From: Barthelona sp. PAP020
Lineage: Eukaryota
DNA length: 22,320 nucleotides
Assembly (NCBI GenBank): GCA_040182905.1
Contig: JARQWU010000019.1
Coordinates: 62,001-84,320, forward strand
Direction: 5' to 3'
Positions 1 through 21,394 of this stretch are shown here, piece by piece. Numbering within the stretch: the first letter of the stretch is position 1; every line of letters starts with the position of its first letter. Below the pieces are notes generated by a model. It was not told the origin of the DNA, made no database searches, and saw only the letters and a list, made by a program, of their open reading frames with translations. The position numbers were made by a program, and so were the translations under genes.

Positions 1-3000
1 AGAAGGTTCCGAAATAGTTGATAAATCATCCTTTTTAAATACAATTTCTCGACAAGTGGAAATGAATCCATAATTAATGAAAGAATGTATTTTAATTTCT
101 GGTCTATAAGCAAATGAACTACAATCAAAATAGATATTTCCTTTGTTTAAAAAGATACTTTTTGTTTCACTCAAAATATTTCGATAAATGTACATATCTC
201 CATAATTATAAAAAACTCCATCGTAAAGTTCCCATCTAGAATCAATATACATAATACCACTATTATTTAAATAAGCAGTAGGTCCAAATTCTACCATAAA
301 ATATTTGTTATGATTGGGATAATCATCTTGTAGTATATAGATCAAATTTTTATTAAATAAACGTACATTTTCGTGGAAATTTACCGGAGACTTTTTAAAA
401 GTCAAGATTCCATAATTGACTATGGCTAAATTATTGTGAAAACTAGAACTATCAACAACTAAAACATCAAGAAAATGTAATTCATCAGATCCATAAAATT
501 CAGTTCCATAAAACGTTACATTATACATATAAACGGGTAAACCAGTATCAAAATAAATATTTGAGTCAGATAACTCCAATTGAGTGCTATTAATGGAATT
601 GTGCAAATCAATATAATGAATAGTGGATGTTTTGACTATGGATTCCATACAATCGATACTAACATTGTCAAAATATACCACAGAGTTTACTATATACATC
701 TTATCCACAGTTATATTAGCAGTATTATTAAATACGATTCTACTGTTCTTAATCGTTAAAACAGAACAACCTGTAAAATTTCCATAAAAATCACCAGTAA
801 AACCATCCAATGCAAAAGTGCCTTCACATGCATTAATGCTGGTTTCATTTGCAAACGTCAAAGCTTTATTGATAGGAGTCACACTAACTGTCTCACCAGA
901 ATATTTGTTAACAATGTCACTTGACATAGCAATAATGTGCAAGAAAGAATCAATCGATTTGATGAAGAAATCTCCTTCATGATATCCACCTTCTCCAAAA
1001 ATAACTCTACCATCAACAATGTTCCAAACACTATGTATGTTTCTTGTATCAACAATGGATCTAAACGTTACTGCTGCACTATCATAGATACCAACATAAT
1101 TGAAATTTGTAAATTTATCGCCAACCATTAATGAACTCCCACTTATCTTAAATATACCAATATTCTCAAAATTATCAAACAATATAAATCTCTCTTGATC
1201 TCTGTGTTCTTCAAAAGTCATGATATCAAAACTATATTCATTTAAACTGTAACTGCCTAAATTCAAATGACAATATGCTCTCAAATTACCATAATTCAAA
1301 AGAGAAGAATTCTCTCCAGTCTGTGATAAGATAAAATTAGTTTCAAAGGATACTGTACCCAAAGGCATGTTGATAAATTTGGCATCATTTTCAATATTCA
1401 AGACTGCCCATGGCATTGAATCCAAAGTAACGTAAGATTTTTGTTCAACAAATTTCAACAAACCATAGTTAGTAATAACAGAGGAATATCCAAGATAAAA
1501 GTCAGAAATTTTAAAAACAGTTGATTCTCCGAACAAATTCATCCTGACATTGTCAAGAAATCCACCACCATACCATTGAAAGATAGAACTGACATTAATG
1601 ACATCATGCCCATCTCTAAAACTACTGTACATAATCATTTGATCAATAACAACATCATGAGAAGTATTGAATGTAATATTTGAATGTCTTATATCAAAAA
1701 TAGAAACATTTGCCAGAGTACAGTTATTGTCAAAAATCAATTTCAAATTGGTAACAAAAATGTCACTAATATTAATAAAAGATGGTTCTGAAAAACTCAT
1801 ATTACTCAAAGTACCAACTAAACTGTCAGAGATAGTCAAATTACCTTCACAAAATAAATCAATGTACCCTCTGAAAGGATACAATATAACAACAGGTTTC
1901 TCTAATTCAGGTATCACCATTGAACCATCTTTTATCCAAATGAAACCATGTTTTGTTATTGAAAAATGATGTAATCCTAACACATCCATCCTGGGGAGAT
2001 AATCATCTCCAACAATCAGATCCCCTTTGTGAATAATTAAAGTACCATCAATATCAGCACCATCAAATATAGTAACATCGCCGGTCTCCACTGACAGAAC
2101 AGATCCTTCAAAAGTTTGAAGAATAACACTGAATGTAGAAATTGAAGCTGGTGATAACACATTTATTGTTCCATTATTTTGAAAATATGATCTAATAGGC
2201 TGTTGATTGTAATAATACTTATAGACTAACACATTGTCTTGGTATGTTGAATATGACCTTAACGAAATTGTTTCCGGGGTAGCTTTCAAATTTCCAGTAC
2301 AATTCATCAAACCGTTGTTAATGAAATACCCTCCTCTGTAAAAATCAATAGAACCAACATCATGATAATCAATGAAACCCTCATTGATAAATTTTCCATA
2401 ATAGTTGATGCTGTGTTTACCAAATCCTGATATTTCTGCTTTTTTCATGTTAACTACATTAGTATATTTTTGACTGATAGTTCCTTGAGTCCAAATCAAT
2501 TGTTCATCAATTTCTAAACGATAATCCTTTGATCCTCGAATTTCACCACCATAAAACCATACATAATCAAAAGAAATGATAGGCATTCCAGCAACATGGA
2601 AAAATCCTGCTTTCAACAAAAGTTCTTTTGGCTTTAATTCATTTTTCATCAAATACAAATATATACCACCACCTAACAATTCCAATTTATCAAAATATCC
2701 TTCAGAATCAGTTTGGAAACTCAAAAATCCAGCAGGAATCTTTAAAATTGACATGTTGAAATAACTATCTTTTTGCATATATATATATGGTCCACCAGAA
2801 TATCCAATATTGTACCAGCAGAAATAATAAAAAGTTTGGTATACATACTTTCTCAAAGTATTTGAATATACACGTCGATTCACAGAACACATACGAGGTT
2901 GTTTGGGTGATTCACGTTTCCAATCTAACTTGGGTAAATTGTCAAAGGGACCTTTCAGTTCATCAGCAACAGATATATTTCCATACATTTTACAATTTGC

Positions 3001-6000
3001 ATGATAGCAGGCTTTTTGTTGCCATGTGCCATTATTATAAAGGATTAAACTACTATTCACTGCCATTGATAAACCTCCCTTTGGGTTAAACGTACCTTTA
3101 ACATGAATGGTGTTGTCTTTAAGAATGTTGATAGAACGATCAAAAATGAAAAAATTTGCCTTATAATCAACAACTAAATCAGCTCTTAAATCAAACACTA
3201 ACTCTTGCTTACTAATTGCATAGGTTAAATACCCAAATGTCGAAGAGTCATCACTTGATGGATTGGGAATAATCCACTCTTTCTTTGCTGTCTCCCAGAA
3301 TTCAAAATGACACATTGGTTTATGTATACTCAACATCAAAGGATCAGGTGGATTATTTGAGCACCAAGTACTTCCACTCTTACATCCCAATTCCCAATGT
3401 CCAAATTCGTCAGCATAAATCACATTCCCATCTTTGTACATTGTTGATTTAGTTGTCATACTTCCAAATATTATAGCACTTGATCCTTGCCAAATTATTG
3501 TATTCGATGCATTACATGCATAAATAGTGAAAGAATCATGCACAGACAAAGTGCCATTCAAAATCAATGTATGTCCAGAACCCATTATATGTTCCTCTGT
3601 ACCATTAAACTTTGATTTACCTGTGACAGTTGTTTTGGAAGGTCCAAGAAAACCTCCTGCTTCCCAGATTAATTGTTGAACAACAACATTATCGGTACCA
3701 TCTCTCCAACCACCTTTAAGATTAAGCCTAGCAAAAGACAATTCAGAACCTGTATCAAAGATAACATATCCACCTTCAATAATTATCTCATCATACTGAA
3801 CACTTTGGGAAATTTTGTTAAATGAAGTAACACCACCAGTAACTTTCAAAGTTTCCATAATCATGACGTCATCAAATTCATCAAAATAAATACGTCCAGT
3901 CAAAGCAGTTTCAGCTGATTTGACAAACCATTCACTTCCACTTGAAGACTTTACTTGTTTGAGATAGATTGCACCAGCGGAACAATATAGGGAATTGATA
4001 GATATTGTACAACCATAAAAATATAAGTTAGAATCCACAGTTTGTTCAATGTATTCTCCCATATCATACGTACCATAGATATAAACAGATGTATTTTTAA
4101 AATATGATAATAGACCAAAACCCGAAAGTGTACCATCTGTTGAAAGAGTAAAAAAACCATCTTCAGGAATTACTACCCTTGAATTGTATCCCATAAAAAC
4201 AGTTGAAGAAATATTGGAGTCATTCTTCACATAAAGATTACAATACGAATTAATGTTCACATGAGAACCAACATAATAAATTGTTTCTGGCATTTCAAAA
4301 TCGCAATAGGGATTAAACGTACCATACAAATGGAAAAACAATGGATAATCGTTTGACGTGAAAGGAACAAAATGAATTGCAGGTTGATTTGTAATATTAA
4401 CTGTACCAGCAGCTTGAATGGTAAAGTTTTCAAGGCTTATAAGATTATTTCCTGAAAAAATGCCATTTGAAATAACTTGAAAATTGGATAAATATTTTGT
4501 GTAATTATCTCCAGCAATATAGATATCATTGACCAAGAAATTATCCAAAGTACCTTTATACATTTCTAAAATATCAATGTGAAGTTGATCTTCATTTGTT
4601 ATAACGCCACAATCCAATTTGAGATAAGAAATTCTAACGTGTTTTAAGTAATAATCCGAATAATCACTGGTTTTTCCATAATAAGAAGCAAGGAAATTCA
4701 TTTGTGTCTTCTCAGTTAACCATAACTGATAGATATGTAAATAATACAGAACATCAACATCATGTTCCATATTCATCCAAAATTTGAATACACCACCATC
4801 TGTAAAATGCAACAATTCATCAGGCTTTGTGATAACTCGATAAGATCGTCTAAATTGATGATAGAAATGATAGCAATTCTCATTACTTTGATGATTACTC
4901 AATACAATATCATTTGAAGGATTATAATACCATATACTAGAATCAGTATTGGGTGTACATTTGAGAATAGGATCATATTGTTCAGATGCATTGTACATCG
5001 ACTCATAACCTAATATTACACTACCACCTTGAATATCAATCTCTTGAATATTATGAGTGCCATAATACATACTGAATAATCCTTTGTTTCTAACAATAAT
5101 CTTTTCAGGATAAAAATGTCCTCTTATTTGTACTCTATTCAATGAAAATGGATTAATATTGTGATTTTGAAAGATAAAGGTTGATTTTGAAGGATAAATT
5201 ACAGCATCATTATAAGTTTGAAGATAATGACCATCAAATGTAACAACTGAACCTTCGGATGTATTGAAGACATTATTACCATAGAAATATACTGTAGAAT
5301 TAAAAGTTGTATCTCCTTTCAAGATAATAAACTCAGAACGATCATAAAAATTTAAACATATGTTCCAAAAGAATCCATCATACGCAATCAACTTTGAATA
5401 TTGTTTAAATCCGAAATTTAATCTGTAAGATGTGGTAATGATATTCTGATACAGATGAAGAATGCTTGAATCATTAAAAACAATGTTGAATATGAAATCA
5501 TCATCGTTAACATTCCATTCATTACTGATGTTCATATAGTGTTGTACGTTGACCGAAACATCATTTATTTTATAAAATGATGAACCTCCTGTAATATTGA
5601 AATTATCAACAGTCAATATTGAGTGATGTTGTTGAGTACTTCCTGAATTTCCCAGAATACCACTTTGCCACACAAAATTGGTGATTTCAATGATAGCTTT
5701 GGAACACGAAAAATTACCCTCTCTGAAATCAAAATGATCAACTTTCAATGAAGAAGAAATAACAGTTATTGAATTGTTCCAGAGTTCAATTTTAGAAAAA
5801 TTCATTAAATTTTCAACAAATGAAAAGATATATAAACCATATTCTGTGTTTAGTTCATTCAAAATCACTGTATTTGCTGTTTTAATATTTAAAACGCCAA
5901 GAATTTGATGATCTCTCAAATAAATAATATCTCCTTTTTCAATCAACAATTTGTTAATCATACCATGATCAATAAAGACAGTGGAATAGTTATAAATATG

Positions 6001-9000
6001 TATCTGCTTATTTGCTGCAGCAGAATTCCAAGAATTTACTGTCAAACTTAAATTATTAAAAGAAACATTCCCCAATGAATTATCAAAATATTCATCAATA
6101 AACAAACTACTTCCATTCATATCAATGATTCCCTCATTAATATTTTGCAATTTACCAAACTCAAGTTTAATATCCTCAATCTCAAGTTTACCTTCACTTG
6201 TAGCATCAATAATTCTATTAATTTCATTCAAACTTCCCAAATTTTTCAATTTTAATGTACCTTTATTGATTAATTGATAATTTGTAAAATTTTTAGCAAT
6301 AATATCCAAAGAACTATAACTACTTGTAATATTGATAACATCAATTTCAAAAATACAATCAGATACAAAGGATAAATGACTTTCACCTTGTAAATATATA
6401 CTTTGCATTTTGAAAGTAGGACATAACGAAGCAAAATGAACATCACCAGTATACATTTCAATCGCTTTGAAAGCATAAGTAGCAGATTCTCTGAATATAA
6501 TACCTGCTTGAGGATTATCATAATAGAACAATGATACGTTATAGAATCCGTACACATCCAAAGCTAAATTTGTGAATTTGATTGGAATACCTGTTATTGT
6601 TCCATCTATTTCAATAAAAATTGTATGTGGGGAAGTGTTTGGATCCTTCAAAAATCCAGTTTCTTCAATATATAATGTACCATGAAGATCCAAGTCTCGA
6701 AGAGTATAAGCAGTTGCAAATAACCTCAAAATTCCTCCATTTTTGATATCACCCAAAACAAATTTCAAATATCCTTCTTTAAACAAGGTAACATATCCTT
6801 GATTTTCGACAATCAAAGATTGAACAGTTGAAATCTCTCCAAAAACATTCAAATCACCAAAAACCGTCAATTTTGAAAAAGACTCAATGGTTGCATTTTG
6901 ATTGATATTTAACACTGAGCCTTCATATAAAACTGAATTTCTAAGAACAGATTTTAATACAGAATTCGTTTCCATATTCCACTCCCCATAATTTACAATT
7001 ATTAATGGTGGCTCAAAAACAGTATTAGGTAATTGTTTCACAACCCCATAATTGTGTATCTCATAAGCAATATTCCCTCCATGCAGCTCTTTTGTTGAGT
7101 TTAAAATTATTGTACCACGATTGATAATGACTGTTTGATATGAATCACCATAATAATGGTGACTCATGGCCAATTGCTCAAATCCCATTGTATTATTGTT
7201 AACAATATAATGTCTGGCTGCAACGTTCCAATATGAATCATTTTTTAGTGGCACAAACTTATCAAATTCTAAATATGACTGATGAATAGCTTCAAAATCC
7301 CCAAATTGAATTTCCTTACTTATCAAACGAGCATAATCAGCAACAAATTTTGTTGAAGCATATATATTATCAACAAATGCTGTTTTTGTCAAGGATTCTA
7401 TCAAAGAACCAGTAGAAGGACCTCTGATCGATACTGTAGGAGCTATTAAATACTCCAATTGAACATTTGTGGATGAAAAAATATTAGCACTTGAAAAAGA
7501 AGTGATATTAAATATTTGAACTTGCAAACAATTATTACAAGACAAAGTGACATCAGTTGCTGTTGCAAAATCAAATTCTGAATGGGCATTTGAACCATCA
7601 ACATTAATAACCAATGAATTCTCCATTACTATATTCATTCCAAAAGATCCTTTGTTAACAATCTTACAACTACCACCCTTTAATATTAAATCTGATGATG
7701 TTGCCAAAAATTCTCCAGTGGAATATACTGTTATGGTTCCTGAATTACAATAAAAATCATCTAGAATGTATAAGGATCCATAGATAATAATGGAACCACT
7801 CATAGCAAAAGTTTTATGAAAATAAACTTTAGCTGATGGTTCAATAAGAAGATTAGGAGAAAATGAACTCATTGCAACGTCAGATCTTAATCTCATAACT
7901 CCTTTGATATCAAAAATAAATTGATTAGCTAATGAAACAAAGAAACCATCAGTAAAGTCCCCTTCTAAAGTTGCCTCAGGATTAATGGTAAACGTACCAT
8001 ATTCACCTAAATATTCACCTTGATCAAAAGAACAACTATGATTACAGACAAAATTACCTTGTAAAATTTTTTGCCAATCAGTTAACATTTTAACACAATC
8101 AAATTCAAAAAGTTTTGACGGTGAATAAATCTTTCCAGAAGAAAATTCAAACAATGAAATATGCTGTGAACTAAAAGTTGAAATTAATGTACTAAAACCA
8201 TATTGCTCAATTTTATTAGAAATAATTGTGTTGATACTTAATTGAGATGTTCCTGAGATCAAGTGTATTGAAGTAATATTCATGGAATTTGCTTGAACAA
8301 CAGCATTCTTTGATGAACTAGATAAATCAACGCCATTAAAAGAATTGATTCTTAACCAATTCAATTTACCGTACCATTTCATATTTGTTGAACATTGAAT
8401 TATATCATAATCACATACATAAACAATATCATTAGACATTTCAATAGACCATTCTTTAAAAAATAACTGTCCATTCATTGAATTATTCTGATTAGTTAAA
8501 CATGAATATTCAGAAGCATTTTGAAAACCAGAAAGTTGAATAAATCCCACACTTTGAATTTTATTTCCAACAATCATTTTAGGTACAAATAACTTCAAAC
8601 TATTGTTAGAATGAACAAAATTATTGCCAACTTGAAATAAAATGGGTGAATCAATGTATGTTTCAGAATCAATGTGATTCAGATCATTATCAATAATAAT
8701 TGATGATGTAAACATATTAAAGTTTGAATTTTTGATATCCAGATTGGCTTTTATGTGAATAGAATCAACCACTTTAAAAAGAACATTTGTATCAATAATT
8801 GAAATGCCTTTTGATATTATATCAAGTGATAACGATTTGAATATGATAGAATTATCCAAAGTCAATTGATTTTCAATGATAAATTGCTTTGTTGTAAAAT
8901 CACCATTTCCCTCAAATTGCACATCAGAACGGTTCAAATATATACCCTCAATTATTGAACCAATATCATGAATAGAATAAAAGGAAGAATCTTCAACAAC

Positions 9001-12000: not shown

Positions 12001-15000
12001 GGAGAAAATGATAGTTTCACTTTCATTGGAAGGTTCAAAAGTCTTGGACTTTTTGAGTACAGAATTTCCAACCAAAGTAATTGAACCTGACATTCTATGG
12101 TTCTCTGAATCATACGGCATTTCATAAAAGTAACCAAATATATCAATATTTCCATTCAAAGTGAATATTTGTTGATTACTTATGAATGAAAAACGAGTTT
12201 GAATAAGCGCTACATCACAGTACCACACATTTTGTGAAACTAACTGAACAACATTAATTAAATAAGCCTTTCCTGTTGGATTAATATAACTTTCAAAACG
12301 TACATTCTTTAGAACTAATTCTTCAGTAACATTTATCTGAACGTTATCACATAATAACAATACATCATACCATGCTCTTTGCATTGAAGAATGAATGGAA
12401 CGTTCATCATTGAGATACAACTTTTCAAAATTGATTTGATGAGAAACTCCCAATAACTTGAATTGAGGTATTGATGATGAATAGAAATCATCTGCTTGAA
12501 CTACAACAAAGCCTAAATGCAAATCAGTCAAAGGGGTTTGAACTATAAAAGTAGACTGGTCCGTTACAAACAGATACTCAAAATAGGGACTAATTTGTGA
12601 ATTGGAAAAACGTGAATATGAATTGGCTTTGGCTTCAAAACTTTGAAAATATTGTTTTGCAGAATTACTGATTCTTAGATTACCATTGTCCAAATTCTCA
12701 TAACTTTCAAATGTGGTCGGATTCAAAACATTGGAGAAATACACAGCACCACGTGATACAACATGATTGATCAACCAATAATCATCTAATCCAGGTGCAG
12801 AATTTTCAAACCAAAGAATACCTCCATATTTCACAGAAATGTTATCAATGGTCAAATTTCCCACACCAATGATACTTACTTTACTTGTTGACGATAATGC
12901 AGTGGAATAATCAATATATAATGAGTGAATATACAAACTTTCCAAATCATTGAATTCTGCTTGACCATTCCTCACAACAACATCAATAATTTCGACATCA
13001 GCAACAATGGCAGGGTGAAAACGAATTTCACCATCTAATAATACAGTAAGATCATTGATTATCCATTTATCAACATTGGGCGTCTCATCAAAAATAATTT
13101 TTCCTTTTGAAACACTAATAGAATGAAAGTCATATATACATCCGGGTAACATATGCAAGATTCCTCCATCAATAATAACAATGGAGCCGATTTCCCAACT
13201 TCCAGCGAATCGTAAATAACCACCATCGGCAACAAAAACCGAAGAACCAAAACCTATTAATTTGACATCATAATTGATGACTGTTGGACCATTGAAAATA
13301 ATAGATGAAGCTGCTTCACCATTTGATGTGTTTGAAAGCAGAATATCTTCAAAAAAACACATTTCAGAGGGAAAAGTAATTGAAGAACCGGGTTTAATAA
13401 TCAAACTTCCTAACAAGAATAATCTGAAATCAATAGTGATAATAGAGTCAACAATTAAATCCCCGGATATTTTTAATGAAGGTAAAACGTCAACAGAAGC
13501 ATCACCATATGTAACTGCATATGTTATTGTCTGTGAATCTTCAGCACCATCTGCAAATGCAGCTCGCACAGAACCCACACCGACAAATCGAATTCTGGAT
13601 TGAAATAAAGTTGTTCCCAACTCTATTCTGACATAGTCACCAACTTCAAATAAAGAATCATATCCGACAAAAGAATAATTTCCTTTGAAAAGAATTTCAA
13701 CGCCGGTACCAACTTTGTGAGTTTGAGCTGCATTCATAAACAAATAATCCCCAATGACATTTAAAATAACATAAGAATCAATGGTACCACCTAAAAATGT
13801 GGCACTATTAGAAATATTAAAGAAACAAGGTCCATCAAGATAGCCAGAAACCATTGTAAAATTAACAATGTCAATAAAATCAATATTTAGATAAGCCTGT
13901 GAATCGCTCAAATAAAATTCCCCTGCACTAATCTGATTAAAATCCTGAATTGTCAAACTAGATTGATCTTCTGCTCTAAACAGGTTCAGTTCCAACTTAT
14001 CAGCTAACAACAAATGTTTACAATCTATGATGGTCAAATTGGACTGACTAAGCGAAATACCATTTAAAACCATGTTACAGTGTTGAAAAATAAACTCAGT
14101 ACGGTGTAAATGAACCTTATCTACAACTTTAATTGTACCTTGAAACAAAATGTAAGTATAATCATTTGACCAAACCATACCTGTATCTGCAGTTGATTCA
14201 AAATATGTATGTAAACCAAATTCATAATGAGTGTTCAAAAGTTTCAACCCAGATAACTCACCATACATCATGATAATACCATCAAAGTACGCATTTGGAT
14301 GAACAGTCCAATATGAGTTATTTAAATATATTTCTGAAGTTGATGTAATGACAGGCTTCAAAAACAAGTGAAAATTACTGTTGTACATTTTCCAAATACC
14401 CTTTTGAGTAAAAGTAGAATGAACTAAATCGGTCGAAACAAGAGTTAAATCACCATGGGTCTCAACAGTTGCATTTTCAGCAACTGTAATATACCATCTG
14501 GGACCATCCATTGAATATGTAGATGGAATAAACCAATACTTATTGATTAAAAACGTTATAGAGTGACTAAAATGAACGTTGGTATCAATAGAGAAAAAAT
14601 CAAAATTAAAAGAAGCACTGCATCCAGATTCTGTTACATATATTGAGCCCATTTCTGAATTTCTTAACTTTGCATATTCTGCATTTGTATGACAACCCGT
14701 ATAAAATTTAGAGTTGTTGAAAAACAAAAACTTGGTTGTGAAAACGTTAGCTCTTTGATAAAAACTAATTTCATCAAACAAAACAATTCCAGGCATCTCT
14801 AATGTAGATCCTTTTACCAATAAACTTCCCTGAAGAAATTCAGTCACATCAAGTGTTGTTGCTTGATCGAACGAATAATTACTGAAAATATCTTCCAAAT
14901 CATAAGTATTTGTTCTATCCATGCTGATGGTGGCAGTTTGTGATCTAGAATCAATTACCCAATCAGTGTTATATGATAATTTTAAATTTAAAAGGAAATC

Positions 15001-18000
15001 TTTATAAAGCAACAGATCAATTGCACTATTTAACACAGTAGCAATCGAACCCAACTTTAAATCTTTGATTTCAAAATCAAAATCAACAACATCATAATTA
15101 GAACCATAAAATATCAATGAATTTGCTTGAATGTCAACTTTACTCTCAACAACGTTTACCAAATCCTCAAAAGTTATTAGAGAACTATCATAGATTAAAG
15201 TTGTTCGTAAAGCACGAATAAAAATCTTCGACTGTAATAAGTCAGCTAATCCTTCAGCAATAAACTGATTCGCTATTGTCTCAATTGATACGTTGACAAA
15301 TGATTTGGCTTTAAAGTTAAAAGAGTCTGTTGAGACATTTGCAATCAACTTCAAATTCTCCACAATGGCATTGGAAGAACCCATTTCTGGAATATTCCCC
15401 ATAATATTTGCATAAATATTTTTTAGATTATTGAAAGTTACTATTGCAGAAGAACCCCCATGTAAAACAATGTCTGAATCAAAAAGGTACCCTGAAACAA
15501 TCTTATATGAACCACTGATAATGCTCCTAAATTTACAATTACGAATATCAATGCTATTCAAAGACATGTCAATACCGTTTGTGAATTCAAAGTCAACACC
15601 CCAAAAATCCTTCAAATTATTGATTGAAACTGTTTCAACATCTGCAATAGTAACATTCCCATTCTTGTAATATTTAAGAGTCCAAATATCAAAAAAGTCA
15701 ATAAAATGCAAATTAAAATTGGTTTCTGTGATCAAATTAGATTGATACAAATAAAGCGTGTCAATTTCAGTAATATTTACATTACTGTTTGAAACTGTTG
15801 TTGAAATGAACTGAAGATCAGTGGAATTTGTAACATTCATAATGTTATTAGAAAACGTTTCTGCCTTAAACAATTGAACATTAGAATTTTGAAGAATGAT
15901 GGAACAACTGTCTATTTTTGTGAATTGCTCAAAAGAATTTGTGACTGACGATTCAAATAAAATGTCGGAAAATGACCATGTGCTAGATTTGGTTTGGAAA
16001 AGTGTGGCAATATTTCTAACTTTAATATCACTGTCATTCAGTTCATTAATCTCCAATGTTCCTTCGTTGTAAAATTTTATTTCAATTTCTATGTCATTCC
16101 AGTTATTACCTTTCAGTAAAGAGACTTCAAGACCATTTGAAATGAAAAATTGGCTGGAGATTGCATCTACTTTTTCATTCAACACCCTACTGGTGACTTG
16201 AAAATTATTGACTTGATCCGCGTTCATCGCAACATTGTTGAAATTGGAAATTTTGAAGAAAAAATTTTCAATTACAAGACATTCAAAAGATGTAAATTTT
16301 GTATGGGATGCATAAAGATTGACAGAATTAACTGTGTTCAATTGAATATACGCAACATGTTCAATGGATTCCTGAACAACCAAATCAAATAAATTGAAAT
16401 CTGAACAACTGATTGAACCAGAAGCTAAAACATTACTATTCAATGAAAACTCATTGGCTAAAGTGGTGGTTGACTCATTATTTGCAGTTACATTAATTTC
16501 AACGGACAAAATGTTATCACTTTTCAAAAATCCCTTGCCAATAGTCTTATTAAATTGTAAATTAATGGTTCCTGTTGAAAGCAATTTATTTGAGTGAACA
16601 AAATCGTCAATCAATATTCCTGAAAAGTCAATAAAGGACAATGCAATTCCTAGATAATTGTAATTTTTGATAAATTTTCCATCAAAGGTATAACTATTGA
16701 TTGTATCAACTTGTAAATCAAGTAAATCAATATATTGTGCTTGAAAACCAAATGTGTTAATGGTATTAGCACTAAAATACACTGTTTTGACCACATCGAA
16801 ATCAAATTTCAAATTATTGGACATAACATTATGCAAGATTGATATATCAACTGAATTAGCAATGAATAACATAATATTTTCAGCATTATCAACATTCCAA
16901 TTAAATAATTGTATAACATTCATATTTGTTGTTATATTAACCGCATTATCATTAGTTAAAACAACACTATTAATATTTGAAATGTGAAATTGTATATTTT
17001 GAAAAATTTTGGAAAAAATATCACAATTATCACCATAGTTCATATAAATATTGCTTGAATCATAAGAACCTTTAATTTTGACCTGATTTACCTTATAAAA
17101 ATCAAGATTTGAATTAAAATGACTTGTTGAAGTCAAATAAAATGCTTCAATATGATTACCAGTGTATTTATTGTCAAAATATGCATAAACACCTTTAACT
17201 ATTGACATATTGTGAATATGATTCATAATTATTTGAGTGTTTGATAGTTGTTTTGTATCTATCACGCAATTTTCATCAATTTCATTGAGAGTATAATAAC
17301 TATTGTTGACATAACTAATTGAAGTAAAATTCACTAAATTACTGGAAGAAATGTCAAACCTAATATCAAACGTTTGAAAATCAACAATACTTACATTGAA
17401 AATATCAGATGTACTCACATTTGAATGAAATAAACTGTGTATATTAACATCCAAAAATTCTATTACATCAACTACAATCAGATTGTTGTAATAAAAAGAA
17501 GAACTTAAATCAGTTCCATTGACAGTCACATTAGAACCATGCTTTAATTCAATTGATGAATAATAAACAGAATTTTCAAAAATTATGTTCAAAAGTTCAA
17601 AATATTCCTCAAAAATTACACCAAACATTATATTTTTTATATTATAATTGATTGAAAGTGAATTTAAACCATTAACAACACAGTGATTAGCAATATCAAC
17701 ATCAAACTCAATAAAATCAACACCTTGATGAATAAACTTCATATCATTAACAAGAGGAGCATGCATTCTATTTAAAACTCCATTATAATGTGATAACGTC
17801 CAATTATCAACTTCAGAAAGAACAGAAACATTGGAATATTGAACATCAGTTAATGCTATGGTTGTTGAAACAATTTTATCAGGACTAAATAAGTAAAATT
17901 TATCTGCATTTTGTGTTGAAATCGATAAATTAAACATTAACAAATCTAAAAAGATAAATGTACTGTTGGGATTGACCAATGATATAATTGAAGATGAAAA

Positions 18001-21000
18001 ACTTGTTTTTAAATCAAAAAGGGTGAAATTTGCTTGATTAATGGTAACATACCAGTGATCTATAGATTTCAATGTAATATTAAAATCACCAATGTTATTC
18101 ATTTGTAATTCATTGTTTACACTATTTAATTGACTGTTTATAATAGTTACGTTCCCACCAACAATCATCTTCCAATACATGTTGTCAAAACTATCAACAA
18201 AAAATGGGAAAATCTTAAAAATATTCACAAAACTAAAGTAACTATCATTAAAATAACTGTTTAAGGCATCGTCAACGAAAAATTCATCAACATTGTTCAT
18301 AACCAATTGAGTGTGTTCAAACATGCTTGAGTATAAAGTTAAAAAAGCCACTTCTTCAATATTCATCACGGTATGCTTGAAATCAATCAATTGATGAAAA
18401 GTTTCATCAGTCAATTTAACTTCAACACTATCAACAATATTCAAATTTTTAGAACAATAGGAAGTTATTCCCAGTGTTAGATATGAATCATGTTGAAAAT
18501 CAAAAACACCAGAATGACATTCAGGATGCTTCAATTCTTTAAATTCAAAATATTTGATTTCATACACACGTAGAATACCATACAAAGGTAAAATTGTCCC
18601 GAATATAGAAAATCCCTTTTGTAACACCAATTCACCCCAAATTTCAAGAGAATCAATGTCAATTTTGAAAGTTGTTGTCAAATCCAACAATATCAATGAT
18701 GTTGATGAAACATAAAACTTTTCAAAATCGTTTGCCACCCGAGATAATTCACTGAATACAAAAGTTCCTCCAAAATGTTCAAATGACCTATTTAAATCAT
18801 AGTAACCATCATATTGAATGTGTGAGTCATTATAAGCGCCTTGAATTGTTCCTAATCCATGAAATTCAGTGGTTTCTGGAATAACTAATGACCTGTAAAC
18901 ATACATATATCCTTCAAATTGAAAGATACCCTCAAATCTACAACCTGTTCCCAAGACATGAATTTGAACATCAGAACCCATGCTAAAAGTGTCAGTTTTT
19001 GAGATCATTGCAATTCTAGAACCTAAAATTAATGTTCCTTCATTCATGACGACATTATCTTCAAAAATGACCTCACCCAACAAAACATCGTTATTCAAAT
19101 CGCTCACATAAATATCTCGAAAGCATTGTTCTGTAGTTGGTATAGGAAATTCATTCGTTGATAATGTAAAATCAGTCAATGAATAAGCATGAAAATCAAA
19201 AGGTATAGATTCAACACCTAAGACAAAAGTACATACACGTCTTTCAACAATATTCTCCTCATATACAATTTCATAGCCCAAATCGTTATCAGCACCAACA
19301 ATATGCATTTCATATTCAATCACATCTTTAATTTCATCAGATACATATTTGATAGGCCACCAAGCATGTGTTAGATCAGAAAATCGATTGATGTTACTGT
19401 GAACAAATGACTGACAAGAAACAGTAGAGCAAACATCATCTTCCAACACATAAGTAGAATATTCTATTGCATTAATTAACTCATTTCCCAAACAACAAAC
19501 TCGAGGGGGAAACAAAGAATCAACAACCATATCATTGGACAAAGATAGAGCATCAAGAAAGACCAACTTTCCTTCTGGTGCAACTTTTATCTCGTTGTCA
19601 CCAAATTCAGAAGGATTGATGTGTATCTCAGCATTAGAACCAACAAACACATCACAAGATTCAGTGATGTATGAATGAGCAGATACCTCTGGTGTAAAAA
19701 ACCTTCCTTTTGCAACAACGTGATCATATCCTTTCAATAATTTAACATCACAAACATACGTGAAATCAGCTTCACTGTCCCATATACCACCATACCATTC
19801 AAATAGCTTATCAAAAACCAGAAAATCAGTAATTCGAATCAAAGGAACGTTCCAGAACCTTGCATGATGAACTAAAAGATTCATTCCTGATGCAATATCG
19901 AAATCACCTCCACCCAAGAACAACTCATGAATTTCAAATGCTTGTTCAGTATTATTCAAAATAAATGAGCCACCAGTATGATTGATATACCATGGAAAGT
20001 ACATATTGGTATCATCTCTATAAATAACTCCATATTCAAACTCTGTAGAACCACCTGATTGATTGAACTTAAATCCATCAACAGGATCAATAATTTGACA
20101 ACCAAATCTGAAGTAAATATCTCCACCTTGATGGTCATACACCTGCAAATAATTTATCACAGAATCGGAAGTAAAGTCAACAGTACCATTATATACCGAC
20201 ATTAAATATGTGTTAAAGTCAATAGATCGAATAACAACAGAACCATTGTAAACATACATATGCCCCATTTGATATATTGAGGACATTGTAGTGTACAAAA
20301 TATTCTTGTTTACCCCTTTATATTCAATGTTTGAAAGAGTGTTCAATTGATATATATCTCCATAGAAATCAACAGAATCATAAAACGTAATATTACCATA
20401 TATAAACAAGGGAAACCCCATATGTCTGAAGTAAACTTCACAAATGAAATCGCTATGGTCAGAAAAATAAATAGTACCATAATTTCGAAGGGAAGCCATA
20501 TTATCAACATCATCATTCTCAGTTTTAGGTAGGGTTAAAATGTTGAAATTGGTAAACGTTACACTGGCAGCACTGTTAATAGAAATATAAGCCCCTAAAT
20601 TCAGAAAAATATATCCATCAGAAAAAGCATTTATTCCACCAGAAATTAATAAAGTGTTAAAAGAATTCATCGATCTATCACCATTACCTTCACAAATAAT
20701 TTTGGAAACAGTAAGCGAAGCATAACCAGAGAAGTTTCCACTATTCCAATTGAAATTTTGAATCGAAAAAGACCTACCATAACTAAATACCAAAACAGGT
20801 GTGTTGATGGAATCACCTAAAGTAAATGTTCCAATATTCATTGATCGCCCGACATTTACAGTCGCATTTGTATTTATTAATATATTGTCACCATCAATGG
20901 GTACATTATTCGTATTCCAACATGACAAATCAAAAAAATCCGATTCTTCAAAACAAATAAACTCATGGTCTACTGAATATACAGCGCATATCAAAAAAGT

Positions 21001-21027
21001 AAATAAAATAACAATTCCAACTCGCAT
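1..21027 (-). CDS. Giant (>=7009 aa, 3'-partial) secreted/surface protein, predicted beta-solenoid / adhesin-like; uncharacterised
   Basis: ATG is at 21027-21025, with an in-frame TAG immediately upstream (21030-21028). Manual translation begins MRVGIVILFTFLICAVYSVDHEFICFEESDFFDLSCWNTNNVPIDGDNILINTNATVNVG and is still open at base 1 (...FISTCREIVFKKDDLSTISEPS). No in-frame stop was found in any stretch I translated. The ORF track lists no stop-terminated ORF in this frame, as expected if the frame runs off the left edge. Composition is rich in I/F/N/S/D/V with alternating hydrophobic residues (beta-strand pattern). The CDS call is strong; the fold and function are inference. Confidence 0.95.
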   Translation of the reverse strand, partial: MRVGIVILFTFLICAVYSVDHEFICFEESDFFDLSCWNTNNVPIDGDNILINTNATVNVGRSMNIGTFTLGDSINTPVLVFSYGRSFSIQNFNWNSGNFSGYASLTVSKIICEGNGDRSMNSFNTLLISGGINAFSDGYIFLNLGAYISINSAASVTFTNFNILTLPKTENDDVDNMASLRNYGTIYFSDHSDFICEVYFRHMGFPLFIYGNITFYDSVDFYGDIYQLNTLSNIEYKGVNKNILYTTMSSIYQMGHMYVYNGSVVIRSIDFNTYLMSVYNGTVDFTSDSVINYLQVYDHQGGDIYFRFGCQIIDPVDGFKFNQSGGSTEFEYGVIYRDDTNMYFPWYINHTGGSFILNNTEQAFEIHELFLGGGDFDIASGMNLLVHHARFWNVPLIRITDFLVFDKLFEWYGGIWDSEADFTYVCDVKLLKGYDHVVAKGRFFTPEVSAHSYITESCDVFVGSNAEIHINPSEFGDNEIKVAPEGKLVFLDALSLSNDMVVDSLFPPRVCCLGNELINAIEYSTYVLEDDVCSTVSCQSFVHSNINRFSDLTHAWWPIKYVSDEIKDVIEYEMHIVGADNDLGYEIVYEENIVERRVCTFVLGVESIPFDFHAYSLTDFTLSTNEFPIPTTEQCFRDIYVSDLNNDVLLGEVIFEDNVVMNEGTLILGSRIAMISKTDTFSMGSDVQIHVLGTGCRFEGIFQFEGYMYVYRSLVIPETTEFHGLGTIQGAYNDSHIQYDGYYDLNRSFEHFGGTFVFSELSRVANDFEKFYVSSTSLILLDLTTTFKIDIDSLEIWGELVLQKGFSIFGTILPLYGILRVYEIKYFEFKELKHPECHSGVFDFQHDSYLTLGITSYCSKNLNIVDSVEVKLTDETFHQLIDFKHTVMNIEEVAFLTLYSSMFEHTQLVMNNVDEFFVDDALNSYFNDSYFSFVNIFKIFPFFVDSFDNMYWKMIVGGNVTIINSQLNSVNNELQMNNIGDFNITLKSIDHWYVTINQANFTLFDLKTSFSSSIISLVNPNSTFIFLDLLMFNLSISTQNADKFYLFSPDKIVSTTIALTDVQYSNVSVLSEVDNWTLSHYNGVLNRMHAPLVNDMKFIHQGVDFIEFDVDIANHCVVNGLNSLSINYNIKNIMFGVIFEEYFELLNIIFENSVYYSSIELKHGSNVTVNGTDLSSSFYYNNLIVVDVIEFLDVNIHSLFHSNVSTSDIFNVSIVDFQTFDIRFDISSSNLVNFTSISYVNNSYYTLNEIDENCVIDTKQLSNTQIIMNHIHNMSIVKGVYAYFDNKYTGNHIEAFYLTSTSHFNSNLDFYKVNQVKIKGSYDSSNIYMNYGDNCDIFSKIFQNIQFHISNINSVVLTNDNAVNITTNMNVIQLFNWNVDNAENIMLFIANSVDISILHNVMSNNLKFDFDVVKTVYFSANTINTFGFQAQYIDLLDLQVDTINSYTFDGKFIKNYNYLGIALSFIDFSGILIDDFVHSNKLLSTGTINLQFNKTIGKGFLKSDNILSVEINVTANNESTTTLANEFSLNSNVLASGSISCSDFNLFDLVVQESIEHVAYIQLNTVNSVNLYASHTKFTSFECLVIENFFFKISNFNNVAMNADQVNNFQVTSRVLNEKVDAISSQFFISNGLEVSLLKGNNWNDIEIEIKFYNEGTLEINELNDSDIKVRNIATLFQTKSSTWSFSDILFESSVTNSFEQFTKIDSCSIILQNSNVQLFKAETFSNNIMNVTNSTDLQFISTTVSNSNVNITEIDTLYLYQSNLITETNFNLHFIDFFDIWTLKYYKNGNVTIADVETVSINNLKDFWGVDFEFTNGIDMSLNSIDIRNCKFRSIISGSYKIVSGYLFDSDIVLHGGSSAIVTFNNLKNIYANIMGNIPEMGSSNAIVENLKLIANVSTDSFNFKAKSFVNVSIETIANQFIAEGLADLLQSKIFIRALRTTLIYDSSLITFEDLVNVVESKVDIQANSLIFYGSNYDVVDFDFEIKDLKLGSIATVLNSAIDLLLYKDFLLNLKLSYNTDWVIDSRSQTATISMDRTNTYDLEDIFSNYSFDQATTLDVTEFLQGSLLVKGSTLEMPGIVLFDEISFYQRANVFTTKFLFFNNSKFYTGCHTNAEYAKLRNSEMGSIYVTESGCSASFNFDFFSIDTNVHFSHSITFLINKYWFIPSTYSMDGPRWYITVAENATVETHGDLTLVSTDLVHSTFTQKGIWKMYNSNFHLFLKPVITSTSEIYLNNSYWTVHPNAYFDGIIMMYGELSGLKLLNTHYEFGLHTYFESTADTGMVWSNDYTYILFQGTIKVVDKVHLHRTEFIFQHCNMVLNGISLSQSNLTIIDCKHLLLADKLELNLFRAEDQSSLTIQDFNQISAGEFYLSDSQAYLNIDFIDIVNFTMVSGYLDGPCFFNISNSATFLGGTIDSYVILNVIGDYLFMNAAQTHKVGTGVEILFKGNYSFVGYDSLFEVGDYVRIELGTTLFQSRIRFVGVGSVRAAFADGAEDSQTITYAVTYGDASVDVLPSLKISGDLIVDSIITIDFRLFLLGSLIIKPGSSITFPSEMCFFEDILLSNTSNGEAASSIIFNGPTVINYDVKLIGFGSSVFVADGGYLRFAGSWEIGSIVIIDGGILHMLPGCIYDFHSISVSKGKIIFDETPNVDKWIINDLTVLLDGEIRFHPAIVADVEIIDVVVRNGQAEFNDLESLYIHSLYIDYSTALSSTSKVSIIGVGNLTIDNISVKYGGILWFENSAPGLDDYWLINHVVSRGAVYFSNVLNPTTFESYENLDNGNLRISNSAKQYFQSFEAKANSYSRFSNSQISPYFEYLFVTDQSTFIVQTPLTDLHLGFVVVQADDFYSSSIPQFKLLGVSHQINFEKLYLNDERSIHSSMQRAWYDVLLLCDNVQINVTEELVLKNVRFESYINPTGKAYLINVVQLVSQNVWYCDVALIQTRFSFISNQQIFTLNGNIDIFGYFYEMPYDSENHRMSGSITLVGNSVLKKSKTFEPSNESETIIFSNFISDYEVISTNSVMFLYSNMNFDGSLSMEEEEILKTIIGYKAINFGGIIVSAKNLIISSTSSSSRLTVGANANVTVCKISGYFLNVYGKLYVENEANELCGSTQVSTTWNIYEGADFHTLDIKARKTSGESDEITSLNWQCNSCSNFTFRSVESYGLYWVLNAPLKDFVVSRFNISHIGFNRHSSFVFVANSVLINDFDSDHCDGTIFSPSVDFQKINMNNLVLSVHDGNDHVFFNNPSVENVNSLNFYSCGNITLDKTNNWVTAVTISLENSIFRSSGYLKAGDRFQTFYSKDSVVEISTDVYLTHSGDFTINGGTFYAPSVYKDGLNYENVDLRLSNVQNFSCNYMNLRRLAIMTISNCHLYVETISLYLIVPAKIESSFTNISTLNVVNSQFFLINSVSNISTINTASSSHFKCESSTTNLKDVSFGDHSSITFENCNSNATSMIIEEHSFLFIQDSKWNALESLKILNSFATIEKYTQMNGLISLSAGGETNYQLNLYDSIFKNLKNLDLFSKTFNALNVTFPELISITSDLTDWSFDTFILHHLSNLTIERGVLTGDEISSMSIIAFTSVDATFKVSQMKFDILRNFTSIDSLFIVSTLVMPKLEIFKANDSSFSLSNTGISSNYLVSFESFNTDWNCVYLQSTSLQSINLTDGNVVVERIIFDGLIEWSTNNVIGTVSIIQCGSSFERMTIFTDTWNISEFNSASLSSFECENSQFILNKGTFNDLKNLYIVKSHVELTNVNMNNVTSITIISGGWMSIKDSNFYLFEKLRLINSNLQMFNTKHRLNDIYTSQSSYLKLIDCRNDESHQFEIGYEFKDIIIENTYIYVFNSDLAGRNCLLVDQEYHKNSYFMDSKLIVENIQTNSFRPDLKYLKFHNNTLIGLKTLNISKTYFDMRNGIFDLNLFEASQSSQIIFNDIDIHLYVQNIIWKSVIVSASTVNVLRNLTIYQDFILDNSIIDMVNISCFETKGNFIVTNHSTVSILPKNLFVGQKLVVEDSSFYSIHDIGSIIEGIYLNRSDVQFEGNGDFTTKQFIIENQLTLDNSIIFKSLSLDIISKGISIIDTNVLFKVVDSIHIKANLDIKNSNFNMFTSSIIIDNDLNHIDSETYIDSPILFQVGNNFVHSNNSLKLFVPKMIVGNKIQSVGFIQLSGFQNASEYSCLTNQNNSMNGQLFFKEWSIEMSNDIVYVCDYDIIQCSTNMKWYGKLNWLRINSFNGVDLSSSSKNAVVQANSMNITSIHLISGTSQLSINTIISNKIEQYGFSTLISTFSSQHISLFEFSSGKIYSPSKLFEFDCVKMLTDWQKILQGNFVCNHSCSFDQGEYLGEYGTFTINPEATLEGDFTDGFFVSLANQFIFDIKGVMRLRSDVAMSSFSPNLLIEPSAKVYFHKTFAMSGSIIIYGSLYILDDFYCNSGTITVYSTGEFLATSSDLILKGGSCKIVNKGSFGMNIVMENSLVINVDGSNAHSEFDFATATDVTLSCNNCLQVQIFNITSFSSANIFSSTNVQLEYLIAPTVSIRGPSTGSLIESLTKTAFVDNIYASTKFVADYARLISKEIQFGDFEAIHQSYLEFDKFVPLKNDSYWNVAARHYIVNNNTMGFEQLAMSHHYYGDSYQTVIINRGTIILNSTKELHGGNIAYEIHNYGVVKQLPNTVFEPPLIIVNYGEWNMETNSVLKSVLRNSVLYEGSVLNINQNATIESFSKLTVFGDLNVFGEISTVQSLIVENQGYVTLFKEGYLKFVLGDIKNGGILRLFATAYTLRDLDLHGTLYIEETGFLKDPNTSPHTIFIEIDGTITGIPIKFTNLALDVYGFYNVSLFYYDNPQAGIIFRESATYAFKAIEMYTGDVHFASLCPTFKMQSIYLQGESHLSFVSDCIFEIDVINITSSYSSLDIIAKNFTNYQLINKGTLKLKNLGSLNEINRIIDATSEGKLEIEDIKLEFGKLQNINEGIIDMNGSSLFIDEYFDNSLGNVSFNNLSLTVNSWNSAAANKQIHIYNYSTVFIDHGMINKLLIEKGDIIYLRDHQILGVLNIKTANTVILNELNTEYGLYIFSFVENLMNFSKIELWNNSITVISSSLKVDHFDFREGNFSCSKAIIEITNFVWQSGILGNSGSTQQHHSILTVDNFNITGGSSFYKINDVSVNVQHYMNISNEWNVNDDDFIFNIVFNDSSILHLYQNIITTSYRLNFGFKQYSKLIAYDGFFWNICLNFYDRSEFIILKGDTTFNSTVYFYGNNVFNTSEGSVVTFDGHYLQTYNDAVIYPSKSTFIFQNHNINPFSLNRVQIRGHFYPEKIIVRNKGLFSMYYGTHNIQEIDIQGGSVILGYESMYNASEQYDPILKCTPNTDSSIWYYNPSNDIVLSNHQSNENCYHFYHQFRRSYRVITKPDELLHFTDGGVFKFWMNMEHDVDVLYYLHIYQLWLTEKTQMNFLASYYGKTSDYSDYYLKHVRISYLKLDCGVITNEDQLHIDILEMYKGTLDNFLVNDIYIAGDNYTKYLSNFQVISNGIFSGNNLISLENFTIQAAGTVNITNQPAIHFVPFTSNDYPLFFHLYGTFNPYCDFEMPETIYYVGSHVNINSYCNLYVKNDSNISSTVFMGYNSRVVIPEDGFFTLSTDGTLSGFGLLSYFKNTSVYIYGTYDMGEYIEQTVDSNLYFYGCTISINSLYCSAGAIYLKQVKSSSGSEWFVKSAETALTGRIYFDEFDDVMIMETLKVTGGVTSFNKISQSVQYDEIIIEGGYVIFDTGSELSFARLNLKGGWRDGTDNVVVQQLIWEAGGFLGPSKTTVTGKSKFNGTEEHIMGSGHTLILNGTLSVHDSFTIYACNASNTIIWQGSSAIIFGSMTTKSTMYKDGNVIYADEFGHWELGCKSGSTWCSNNPPDPLMLSIHKPMCHFEFWETAKKEWIIPNPSSDDSSTFGYLTYAISKQELVFDLRADLVVDYKANFFIFDRSINILKDNTIHVKGTFNPKGGLSMAVNSSLILYNNGTWQQKACYHANCKMYGNISVADELKGPFDNLPKLDWKRESPKQPRMCSVNRRVYSNTLRKYVYQTFYYFCWYNIGYSGGPYIYMQKDSYFNMSILKIPAGFLSFQTDSEGYFDKLELLGGGIYLYLMKNELKPKELLLKAGFFHVAGMPIISFDYVWFYGGEIRGSKDYRLEIDEQLIWTQGTISQKYTNVVNMKKAEISGFGKHSINYYGKFINEGFIDYHDVGSIDFYRGGYFINNGLMNCTGNLKATPETISLRSYSTYQDNVLVYKYYYNQQPIRSYFQNNGTINVLSPASISTFSVILQTFEGSVLSVETGDVTIFDGADIDGTLIIHKGDLIVGDDYLPRMDVLGLHHFSITKHGFIWIKDGSMVIPELEKPVVILYPFRGYIDLFCEGNLTISDSLVGTLSNMSFSEPSFINISDIFVTNLKLIFDNNCTLANVSIFDIRHSNITFNTSHDVVIDQMIMYSSFRDGHDVINVSSIFQWYGGGFLDNVRMNLFGESTVFKISDFYLGYSSVITNYGLLKFVEQKSYVTLDSMPWAVLNIENDAKFINMPLGTVSFETNFILSQTGENSSLLNYGNLRAYCHLNLGSYSLNEYSFDIMTFEEHRDQERFILFDNFENIGIFKISGSSLMVGDKFTNFNYVGIYDSAAVTFRSIVDTRNIHSVWNIVDGRVIFGEGGYHEGDFFIKSIDSFLHIIAMSSDIVNKYSGETVSVTPINKALTFANETSINACEGTFALDGFTGDFYGNFTGCSVLTIKNSRIVFNNTANITVDKMYIVNSVVYFDNVSIDCMESIVKTSTIHYIDLHNSINSTQLELSDSNIYFDTGLPVYMYNVTFYGTEFYGSDELHFLDVLVVDSSSFHNNLAIVNYGILTFKKSPVNFHENVRLFNKNLIYILQDDYPNHNKYFMVEFGPTAYLNNSGIMYIDSRWELYDGVFYNYGDMYIYRNILSETKSIFLNKGNIYFDCSSFAYRPEIKIHSFINYGFISTCREIVFKKDDLSTISEPS
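16579..16818 (-). repeat. Protein-level 10-residue periodic repeat (8 consecutive units) within the giant CDS
   Basis: Translation: NNLKFDFDVV/KTVYFSANTI/NTFGFQAQYI/DLLDLQVDTI/NSYTFDGKFI/KNYNYLGIAL/SFIDFSGILI/DDFVHSNKLL. Positions 3 and 10 are hydrophobic in all units and position 5 in all but the last. No DNA-level identity between units. Confidence 0.7.
20974..21027 (-). other. N-terminal signal peptide coding segment (MRVGIVILFTFLICAVYS, likely cleavage VYS|VD)
   Basis: Short basic n-region (MR), a hydrophobic core (VGIVILFTFLICAV), small residues at -3/-1 (V, S), then an acidic mature N-terminus. Confidence 0.85.
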
Positions 21028-21394
21028 CTAGAATTGCAAAAACCATATAGTATAAATAACTTTTTACCCAAACCAATCAGAAAATTTTTTCCAAAAAATT
21101 CAAAGAATTTATTACAAATGAATGAAAACAACAGTTTGATCGCAAAGAGTACAAATAAAAAAGTAACAGAAAAGAGAATCAAAAAAAAAAAGATCGGGTA
21201 GAAAGACGAATCATTTTTTTTGATTTTTTCCTTCTCAGCATGTTTCTGAAAATGTTTGAAAGAAGAAGTTTTTCACCATATTTATTTGATTTTCATGTTG
21301 ATTAGAAAAATTATGAAGTGCAGTTCTTTTGTTTATCAATTATTGGAATGATTTTATCACTAACATTGTAAATATTCAATTATTTTCAAAAGAA
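21028..21394. promoter_or_regulatory. Intergenic region / putative divergent promoter with CCAAT-box-like AACCAATCAG (21071-21080) and opposed poly-A (21181-21191) and poly-T (21214-21229) tracts
   Basis: Lies between the start of the minus-strand giant CDS and a plus-strand coding-like region. Rich in homopolymers. AACCAATCAG matches the NF-Y consensus. No Shine-Dalgarno-like sequence precedes ATG 21027. Confidence 0.45.

Follow-up and report, generated by a model that had tools for sequence, protein, structure and literature searches.

A giant intron-free open reading frame

The 22,320-nt stretch of DNA analysed here (the window) probably carries an uninterrupted gene for a likely exported protist protein of at least 7,009 aa, which would fold into a right-handed β-helix rod, at least in its repeat-bearing parts, and would likely act as an adhesin or coat fibre. 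The first-pass annotation of the window claimed a minus-strand frame open for 7,009 codons, and translation from position 21027 to position 1 confirms it: the frame contains zero stops, and its 3′ end is open at the window edge. From base composition, about 559 stops would be expected, and log10 P for their complete absence is −253. ORFs in 50 shuffles reached at most 148 codons, and the second-longest stop-to-stop frame anywhere in the window is 109 aa. The two parts of the window are:

1..21027, minus strand: giant ORF, at least 7,009 aa (at least 794 kDa, pI 4.7, K+R−D−E about −335), with its stop codon outside the window
21028..22320, no strand assigned: 1.29 kb upstream of the ORF, containing a poly-T tract, without a frame of 100 aa, and without a Shine-Dalgarno-like word near the ATG

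The giant ORF is free of introns across 21 kb, is directly preceded by an in-frame TAG at its ATG, and has a GC content of 0.36, 0.32, and 0.23 at codon positions 1, 2, and 3. The net charge of the protein is negative in each 500-aa block. The standard genetic code suffices, and alternative codes were ruled out: TAA and TAG occur at none of the 189 Gln codons, and codes 4 and 25 are disfavoured because TGA is absent from the 72 Trp and the 415 Gly codons. At the DNA level, 13 direct-repeat families are present, each two-copy, 27–42 nt long, and 70–82% alike, together with one 29-nt tandem repeat; the best self-match of the protein has an E-value of 1.6e-4, in agreement with the earlier statement that near-identical repeats are absent. 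The upstream region gave no Pfam match for 7 frames and no Rfam match. A caller of closed ORFs would omit an ORF whose frame has no stop in the window.

N-terminal segment and sequence motifs

The N-terminal segment comprises a predicted signal peptide followed by a cap and a first repeat:

20974..21027, minus strand: predicted cleavable signal peptide, aa 1–18 (hydropathy peak 2.21 at aa 1–19; cleavage site placed by eye)
20470..20955, minus strand: N-terminal cap (W..N.VP..GD.. motif, weakly G8-like) plus first degenerate repeat, aa 25–186 (Pfam G8 E 0.1; repeat HMM 12.4 bits)

Residues 1–19 are the sole strongly hydrophobic stretch of the protein (19-residue Kyte-Doolittle mean 2.21, with later maxima ≤1.75), consistent with the signal peptide claimed in the first-pass annotation; there is therefore no clear transmembrane segment after it within the window, also as claimed. 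In the cap, Pfam G8 aligns at aa 37–59 with an E-value of 0.1 and 12.9 bits, compared with a cut-off of 22.9 bits, over profile positions 2–24 only of 124; on this partial match, membership of the G8-domain family (fibrocystin type) was rejected. The N-terminal region aligns by phmmer with a bacterial protein, P0016, at 13.2 bits, compared with 3.5 bits for the reversed control. RTX GGxGxDxL nonapeptides number 0 in the 7,009 aa seen.

N-glycosylation sequons are numerous, as had been claimed (129 vs 104.6 ± 9.2 in 1,000 shuffles), and the excess lies entirely in N-x-T (62 vs 39.5 ± 5.9 shuffled). Two bacterial relatives share an N-x-T excess (13 vs 6.3 and 15 vs 9.2), so this excess is not clean evidence of glycosylation, and it was rejected as proof of a eukaryotic gene.

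A ~205-aa repeat shared with bacterial and protist proteins

A phmmer search with aa 5701–6900 against 1.84 billion representatives returned 10 hits with E-values from 4e-22 to 3.5e-4, each of which aligns best over aa ~5710–5857, i.e., on the same module. Ranks 1–3 are bacterial-type or unlabelled proteins and stand above the labelled eukaryote ones. One hit, from Roseateles, is annotated as a "beta strand repeat-containing protein", 4 of the 10 have a PEP-CTERM motif above the Pfam cut-off, and 3 of the 10 come from NCBI records for Eukaryota sp. GEM-RC1 and TZLM3-RCL. A profile search with A1, covering protein lengths of 353–2,000 aa only, matched 3 of 7,996 candidates.

The relatives are built of a ~205-aa unit with the core h.l.GG.r.G.g.l.v..l.W.gG.l.G.g.ttv.g. 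A repeat HMM built without the window detects 7 copies in the giant protein, of which 5 are clear and 2 are weak; controls scored at most 0.8 bits in 20 shuffles and at most 1.5 bits in reversed sequence. Copy 1 spans aa 88–186 (12.4 bits), and the others are:

5410..5811, minus strand: weak repeat copy, aa 5073–5206 (5.0 bits)
4363..4644, minus strand: weak repeat copy, aa 5462–5555 (5.2 bits)
within 3430..4212, minus strand: best-conserved repeat, aa 5727–5856 (93.5 bits)
2026..2625, minus strand: repeat copy, aa 6135–6334 (14.2 bits)
1282..1740, minus strand: repeat copy, aa 6430–6582 (30.9 bits)
112..627, minus strand: repeat copy, aa 6801–6972 (13.7 bits), the window edge being reached still in repeat-type sequence

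Repeat homology is limited to aa 25–186 and 5070–6970. The copies are spaced by about 300–390 aa in the window, by 362 and 267 aa in the eukaryote protein GEMRC1_008520 (P0005), and mostly by 200–250 aa in bacterial proteins. Two inserts between the repeats stand out by composition:

3175..3468, minus strand: Cys/Trp/Pro-rich insert, aa 5854–5951, candidate loop (density 0.40, only the 95th percentile of shuffles)
2680..3066, minus strand: Cys/aromatic/basic insert, aa 5988–6116, candidate binding loop (density of Pro, Cys, aromatic, and basic residues 0.50, exceeding all 300 shuffles, maximum 0.46)

Two samples of 401 bacterial genomes each, taken around the same genome (G001, counted in both), contain the repeat in 5 and 7 genomes, respectively. 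The bacterial carriers include frames as long as 5,938 aa, some of 2,400–5,900 aa, with DUF4347, cadherin-like, RTX, TPS, or PEP-CTERM parts, and three further repeat-bearing relatives have Ig or dockerin domains; the presence of the repeat beside such parts indicates that the bacterial carriers are exported surface proteins. In particular, bacterial PEP-CTERM proteins and giant T1SS/TPS-type adhesins (Roseateles WP_428506352.1; L026, L027, L032, L033) are exported, reach ≤5,900 aa, and share with the giant protein both a homologous repeat and a W..N/W..P..D-type N-terminal cap. However, the bacterial carriers are Gly/Ala/Thr-rich and Cys-free and have regular tandem repeats and sorting or adhesion domains, whereas the giant protein has degenerate, widely spaced copies and no sorting or adhesion domain within the window.

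Scans of 7 overlapping pieces of the giant protein against Pfam, NCBIfam, and PHROG gave nothing above cut-off, the best row being the partial G8 match; the earlier claim that no catalytic, EGF, Ig, cadherin, or LRR family is recognisable therefore stands. Known families were rejected individually. The PATR (autotransporter-associated β-strand repeat) models PF12951 and TIGR02601 gave no row at E ≤1 in 7 of 7 window pieces or in the relatives scanned, and, since no Pfam or NCBIfam model covers the repeat in any protein scanned, the repeat is not PATR. The motifs by which Pmp proteins are defined, repeated GGA(I/L/V) and FxxN (10.1101/454884), occur 0 times and 56 times (48.4 ± 6.4 shuffled), respectively. 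The BspA/LRR patterns LxxLxLxxN and IxxxAF occur once each, at chance level, with no LRR Pfam row, and membership of the Hyr/Iff/Awp1 family was rejected for lack of a PF11765 row at E ≤1.

Word-based searches found relatives among 0 of 3,438 candidates for aa 2010–7009 (against proteins of 3,854–12,266 aa) and among 0 of 7,983 scored proteins for aa 18–900 (against proteins <3,854 aa). Relatives numbered 0 among 37 metagenome-contig pattern matches with a window piece, 0 among 26 with P0006, and 0 among 3 viral contigs. PDB sequence searches gave chance-level rows only, the repeat profile matched Hap weakly (E 0.026), and the Atlas leads for aa 5701–6900 were all below 0.9.

By sequence comparison, the ~205-aa repeat is an unnamed family common to bacterial secreted proteins and skoliomonad proteins (see below). 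The suggestion of a possibly undescribed giant-protein family is refined by this result: the protein is not an orphan.

Predicted right-handed parallel β-helix

The segment that includes the best-conserved repeat was modelled with AlphaFold2:

3430..4212, minus strand: segment modelled as right-handed parallel β-helix, aa 5606–5866 (pLDDT 77.5, pTM 0.78)

The input alignment comprised 46 rows, 4 window stretches and 42 bacterial rows (kept from 45 after removal of near-duplicates), and the model therefore leans on the bacterial rows. The model is all-β, with no helices, and aa 5606–5866 are accordingly predicted to form a right-handed parallel β-helix; this confidently modelled part accounts for 261 of the 7,009 residues. 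A single-sequence AlphaFold2 run on aa 5701–6500 was uninformative (pLDDT 32.6).

Full structural alignment of the model with 48,161 chains placed VacA p55 first (Z 16.9, rmsd 3.8 Å, 247 residues aligned), followed by pertactin (Z 16.3, rmsd 3.6 Å, 244 aligned), tapirin (Z 15.7, rmsd 3.6 Å, 231 aligned), and Candida Awp1 and Awp3b (Z 14.4), so that the top five neighbours are all non-enzymatic. Other passengers, tailspikes, and lyases rank close behind. The rmsd to the model is 3.3–4.5 Å for right-handed β-helices and ~12 Å for left-handed ones. Foldseek searches of PDB and BFVD gave no match at E ≤0.001 (best PDB TM 0.39).

Scores only slightly below those of the top neighbours were also obtained for polysaccharide lyases and phage depolymerases (Z 12–13.9), and the fold therefore does not fix the function. 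The rod might instead be a secreted polysaccharide-binding or -cleaving protein, a β-helix of lyase or depolymerase type that strips capsules or biofilm from bacterial prey, a reading that we judge quite unlikely. Many lyases, epimerases, and tailspikes do match the model at Z 11.6–13.9, the inserts contain numerous aromatic, basic, and Cys residues, and skoliomonads are described as bacterivorous (PMC11603281). Against this, no enzyme family of Pfam, NCBIfam, or PHROG matches, the best structural neighbours are non-enzymatic, and the 46-row repeat alignment contains 0 invariant columns and one near-invariant Gly, hence no conserved catalytic residue in the repeat.

The central ~4,600 residues

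Between the N-terminal repeat and the C-terminal group of repeats lies a long region for which relatives were not found:

5848..19620, minus strand: central ~4,600 aa (aa 470–5060), Asn/Ser/Ile-rich and Pro-poor, presumed β-solenoid stalk on composition and periodicity

In aa 470–5060, nothing scored above reversed controls. The hydrophobic periodicity of the protein peaks at 6.5–7 residues (band power 2.69, compared with 0.5–1.3 for the 12 remaining bands) and echoes at ~20 residues; periodicities of ~6.7 and ~20 residues fit three faces per β-helix coil. The periodicity exceeds the 95% null level in only 6 of 23 400-aa windows. The β moment is 0.96 for the giant protein and 0.92 for one shuffle, and the α moment is 0.86 and 0.92, respectively. 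The earlier description of the protein as almost all β-patterned thus finds only modest backing. The β-solenoid assignment is supported, by prediction, for aa 5606–5866. From the ~6.7/20-residue periodicity alone, the central ~4,600 aa are presumed to be a solenoid. The rise of a β-helix is 0.48 nm per coil. At 20–24 residues per coil, the visible chain would be 140–170 nm long if it were helix throughout.

Alternatively, the protein could be a precursor or mosaic in which β-helix blocks at both ends are joined by other folds, possibly cut into subunits after export. The confinement of repeat homology to the two ends, the changes in composition and periodicity along the chain, and the modest size of the database relatives (500–1,070 aa) are compatible with this arrangement, which we nevertheless consider unlikely: low Pro content and the ~6.7/20 periodicity persist through the middle, no R-x-K/R-R site is present in the 7,009 aa seen, and the short relatives start or stop in mid-repeat and therefore look like fragments.

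Skoliomonad relatives and origin of the gene

By name match (Skoliomonas sp. GEM-RC; TZLM3-RCL; 10.1101/2023.05.03.539051), the isolates GEM-RC1 and TZLM3-RCL are skoliomonad metamonads. One of their proteins is collinear with the C-terminal part of the visible chain:

1441..4248, minus strand: aa 5594–6529, collinear with P0005 (GEMRC1_008520), a eukaryote protein (BLASTP 20%, 947 columns, E 2.6e-18)

Outside the repeat core, the similarity between the window and P0005 is beaten by 0 and 2 of 1,000 shuffles. P0005 also has an insert at the position of aa 5854–5951, and the inserts of the two proteins do not resemble each other in sequence (p 0.18 for the aa 5854–5951 insert, and 0.04). At an identity of only ~20%, the window may represent either a related but different organism or a distant paralogue. 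The three skoliomonad proteins GEMRC1_008520, GEMRC1_008066, and RCL1_000032 (P0005, P0011, and P0009) resemble the giant protein in the repeat, in long inter-repeat inserts, and in the presence of Cys, and RCL1_000032 likewise has a hydrophobic N-terminus. They differ in being annotated as hypothetical proteins of 513–1,069 aa, uncharacterised and apparently partial, compared with at least 7,009 aa here. The relatives annotated at 500–1,000 aa may thus be fragments of far larger genes.

A quick tree has a branch, supported at SH-aLRT 93, to one side of which lie 13 of the 14 modules taken from the window, the skoliomonads, and P0006. The tree comprises 87 modules of 92 found (near-duplicates dropped) and 96 columns, and omits three weak copies of the window that scored under the cut-off. 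One skoliomonad module falls outside the eukaryote-type group, long branches and deviant composition occur in exactly the eukaryote-type rows, and no starred support was obtained in the quick search. Because of the 96 columns, the long branches, and the compositional bias, the direction of repeat transfer is a hypothesis.

Alternatively, the source could be a giant virus or an AT-rich bacterium, and the gene would then encode one more giant bacterial-type β-helix surface protein. The absence of introns in 21 kb would fit such a source, as would the predominance of bacteria among the relatives and the existence of giant bacterial repeat carriers. We consider this origin improbable, however: the only long collinear relative is a record labelled eukaryote on a 2.8-Mb contig, the tree groups the window with skoliomonad modules, the giant protein contains 87 Cys compared with none in the bacterial relatives P0002, P0004, and P0010, no PHROG matches, and there is neither a Shine-Dalgarno-like word nor TGA at Trp or Gly (codes 4 and 25). 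Taken together, the collinear skoliomonad relative, the tree, the Cys content, and the lack of a Shine-Dalgarno-like word in the ORF-poor upstream region make it likely that the giant gene is eukaryotic.

Proposed function and comparison with known systems

For a eukaryotic β-helix rod, we propose the following sequence of events. The giant protein would enter the ER via its 18-aa signal and may be N-glycosylated. Its ~20-residue coils would stack one upon another, giving a stiff and acidic rod, tethered by a C-terminus beyond the window, from which the Cys/aromatic inserts could loop out as variable binding sites far from the cell. The window itself contains no anchor. The rod would then act as an adhesin or coat fibre, in the manner of pertactin, tapirin, and the Awp/Hyr proteins (PMC8746771). 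The repeat itself may be of bacterial origin, taken up by an ancestral member of the lineage.

Skoliomonads are reported to eat bacteria, and one isolate to stick by a posterior spike and to form double-walled cysts (PMC11603281); bacterivory, spike attachment, and cysts suggest attachment, prey capture, and the cyst wall as possible uses. A purely structural role, in which the protein does not bind ligands as an adhesin but forms a fibre in a cyst wall, a plug, or some other extracellular scaffold, is in our estimate rather improbable. The protein is very long, acidic, and sequon-rich, has no transmembrane segment in the window, and has a relative in TZLM3-RCL, which makes double-walled plugged cysts (PMC11603281); but GEM-RC has relatives as well, and the text consulted from the same source reports no cyst for it; moreover, the bacterial relatives are tethered surface proteins.

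A broader proposal, which we put forward tentatively, is that free-living anaerobes of barthelonid/skoliomonad type captured a bacterial repeat and grew from it single-exon, near-megadalton β-helix filaments of at least 150 nm, missed or fragmented by gene callers, whose variable Cys/aromatic loops grip surfaces, prey, or partners. If true, these would be among the longest single-chain β-helices in a eukaryote.

The fold is already known and the kind of function probably so, the repeat family is unnamed, and the giant intron-free eukaryotic form is apparently undescribed. A literature search that included few subscription papers and no supplements (such as genome-preprint annotation tables) found no such protein described in a metamonad, and the main text of the genome preprint on the skoliomonad isolates contains 0 occurrences of "surface protein" and 0 of "adhesin". 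The repeat defined here is absent from Pfam and NCBIfam though present in bacterial proteins of several export routes. Almost nothing has been described of surface biology in free-living metamonads, for which a giant exported β-helix related to bacterial adhesins would offer a testable candidate for prey capture or attachment.

Four known systems provide comparisons. First, autotransporter and TPS passengers (pertactin 2iou, VacA p55 2qv3, Hap 3syj, HxuA 4rm6) and tapirin (6n2c) have the same right-handed parallel β-helix as the model (Z 13.8–16.9, rmsd 3.3–4.2 Å, 221–247 residues), but at 8–13% identity; the giant protein is >5 times longer than the matched chains and has no barrel, protease, or toxin domain in the window. 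Second, the fungal Awp1/Hyr/Iff wall adhesins (PF11765) are eukaryotic, secreted, adhesin-like β-helix proteins described as having many bacterial relatives (PMC8746771), and they resemble the giant protein at Z 14.4 and as an Atlas lead of 0.87. Their A-regions have about nine turns and an α-crystallin cap, followed by a Ser/Thr stalk and a GPI anchor, whereas the giant protein has no low-complexity Ser/Thr stalk. Third, the trichomonad Pmp and BspA proteins are likewise bacteria-like solenoid surface proteins of a metamonad (10.1101/454884), and the giant protein would be a free-living parallel to these adhesins, differing in its lack of GGA(I/L/V), its chance-level FxxN, and its lack of an LRR pattern. 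Fourth, Cag_663 and Cag_665 of Chlorobium chlorochromatii, likened to the giant protein by description only, are bacterial, LEPRxLL-led, and highly repetitive, and are described as giant single ORFs encoding predicted β-helical filaments of 240–400 nm in cell-cell contact (10.64898/2026.03.19.712371).

Periodicity within the giant ORF and sequence upstream of its start

The central region of the giant ORF contains a periodic segment:

Window 9550-10500 (aa ~3510-3825 of the giant ORF), minus strand: ~15 degenerate 20-residue units with the pattern F..L..L.I....F.L.N..

Across aa ~3510-3825, the autocorrelation of hydrophobicity is 0.16 at lags of 20 and 40 residues, and these units may represent a second type of solenoid.

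On the minus strand at window 21028-21067, TTCTAG lies immediately 5′ of the giant-ORF ATG. The sequence before it is rich in pyrimidines and includes several GT dinucleotides, 15-45 nt upstream. A short intron in the 5′ UTR could have its acceptor at this TAG, which would then be more than an in-frame stop. Farther upstream, GC is slightly raised across window 21950-22320, where three of the four 100-nt bins reach 0.34-0.37. Both strands of this interval have short frames (40-51 aa), with no Pfam match, and it may be the end of an adjoining gene.

Other carriers of the unnamed repeat

Two bacterial loci carry multiple copies of the unnamed ~205-aa repeat:

L026 (genome G049), 2845-16356: ORF of 4,504 aa, comprising DUF4347, followed by the unnamed repeat in 13 tandem copies, followed by 11-12 cadherin-like/Big_9 domains
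L033 (genome G001), 3242-10453: frame of 2,404 aa with eight copies of the unnamed repeat

The L033 frame looks like a head-to-tail fusion of several complete PEP-CTERM-type repeat cassettes.

The skoliomonad relatives GEMRC1_008520, GEMRC1_008066, and RCL1_000032 start and/or end in mid-repeat, and the first two have no hydrophobic N-terminus; all three look like pieces of larger genes. The metagenome relative P0006, a protein with 12 Cys, is encoded on a 2.5-kb contig. In a quick tree of 87 modules (single repeat copies; 96 columns), both P0006 modules group with those of the window and the skoliomonads, and its source is possibly another eukaryote having the unnamed-repeat family.
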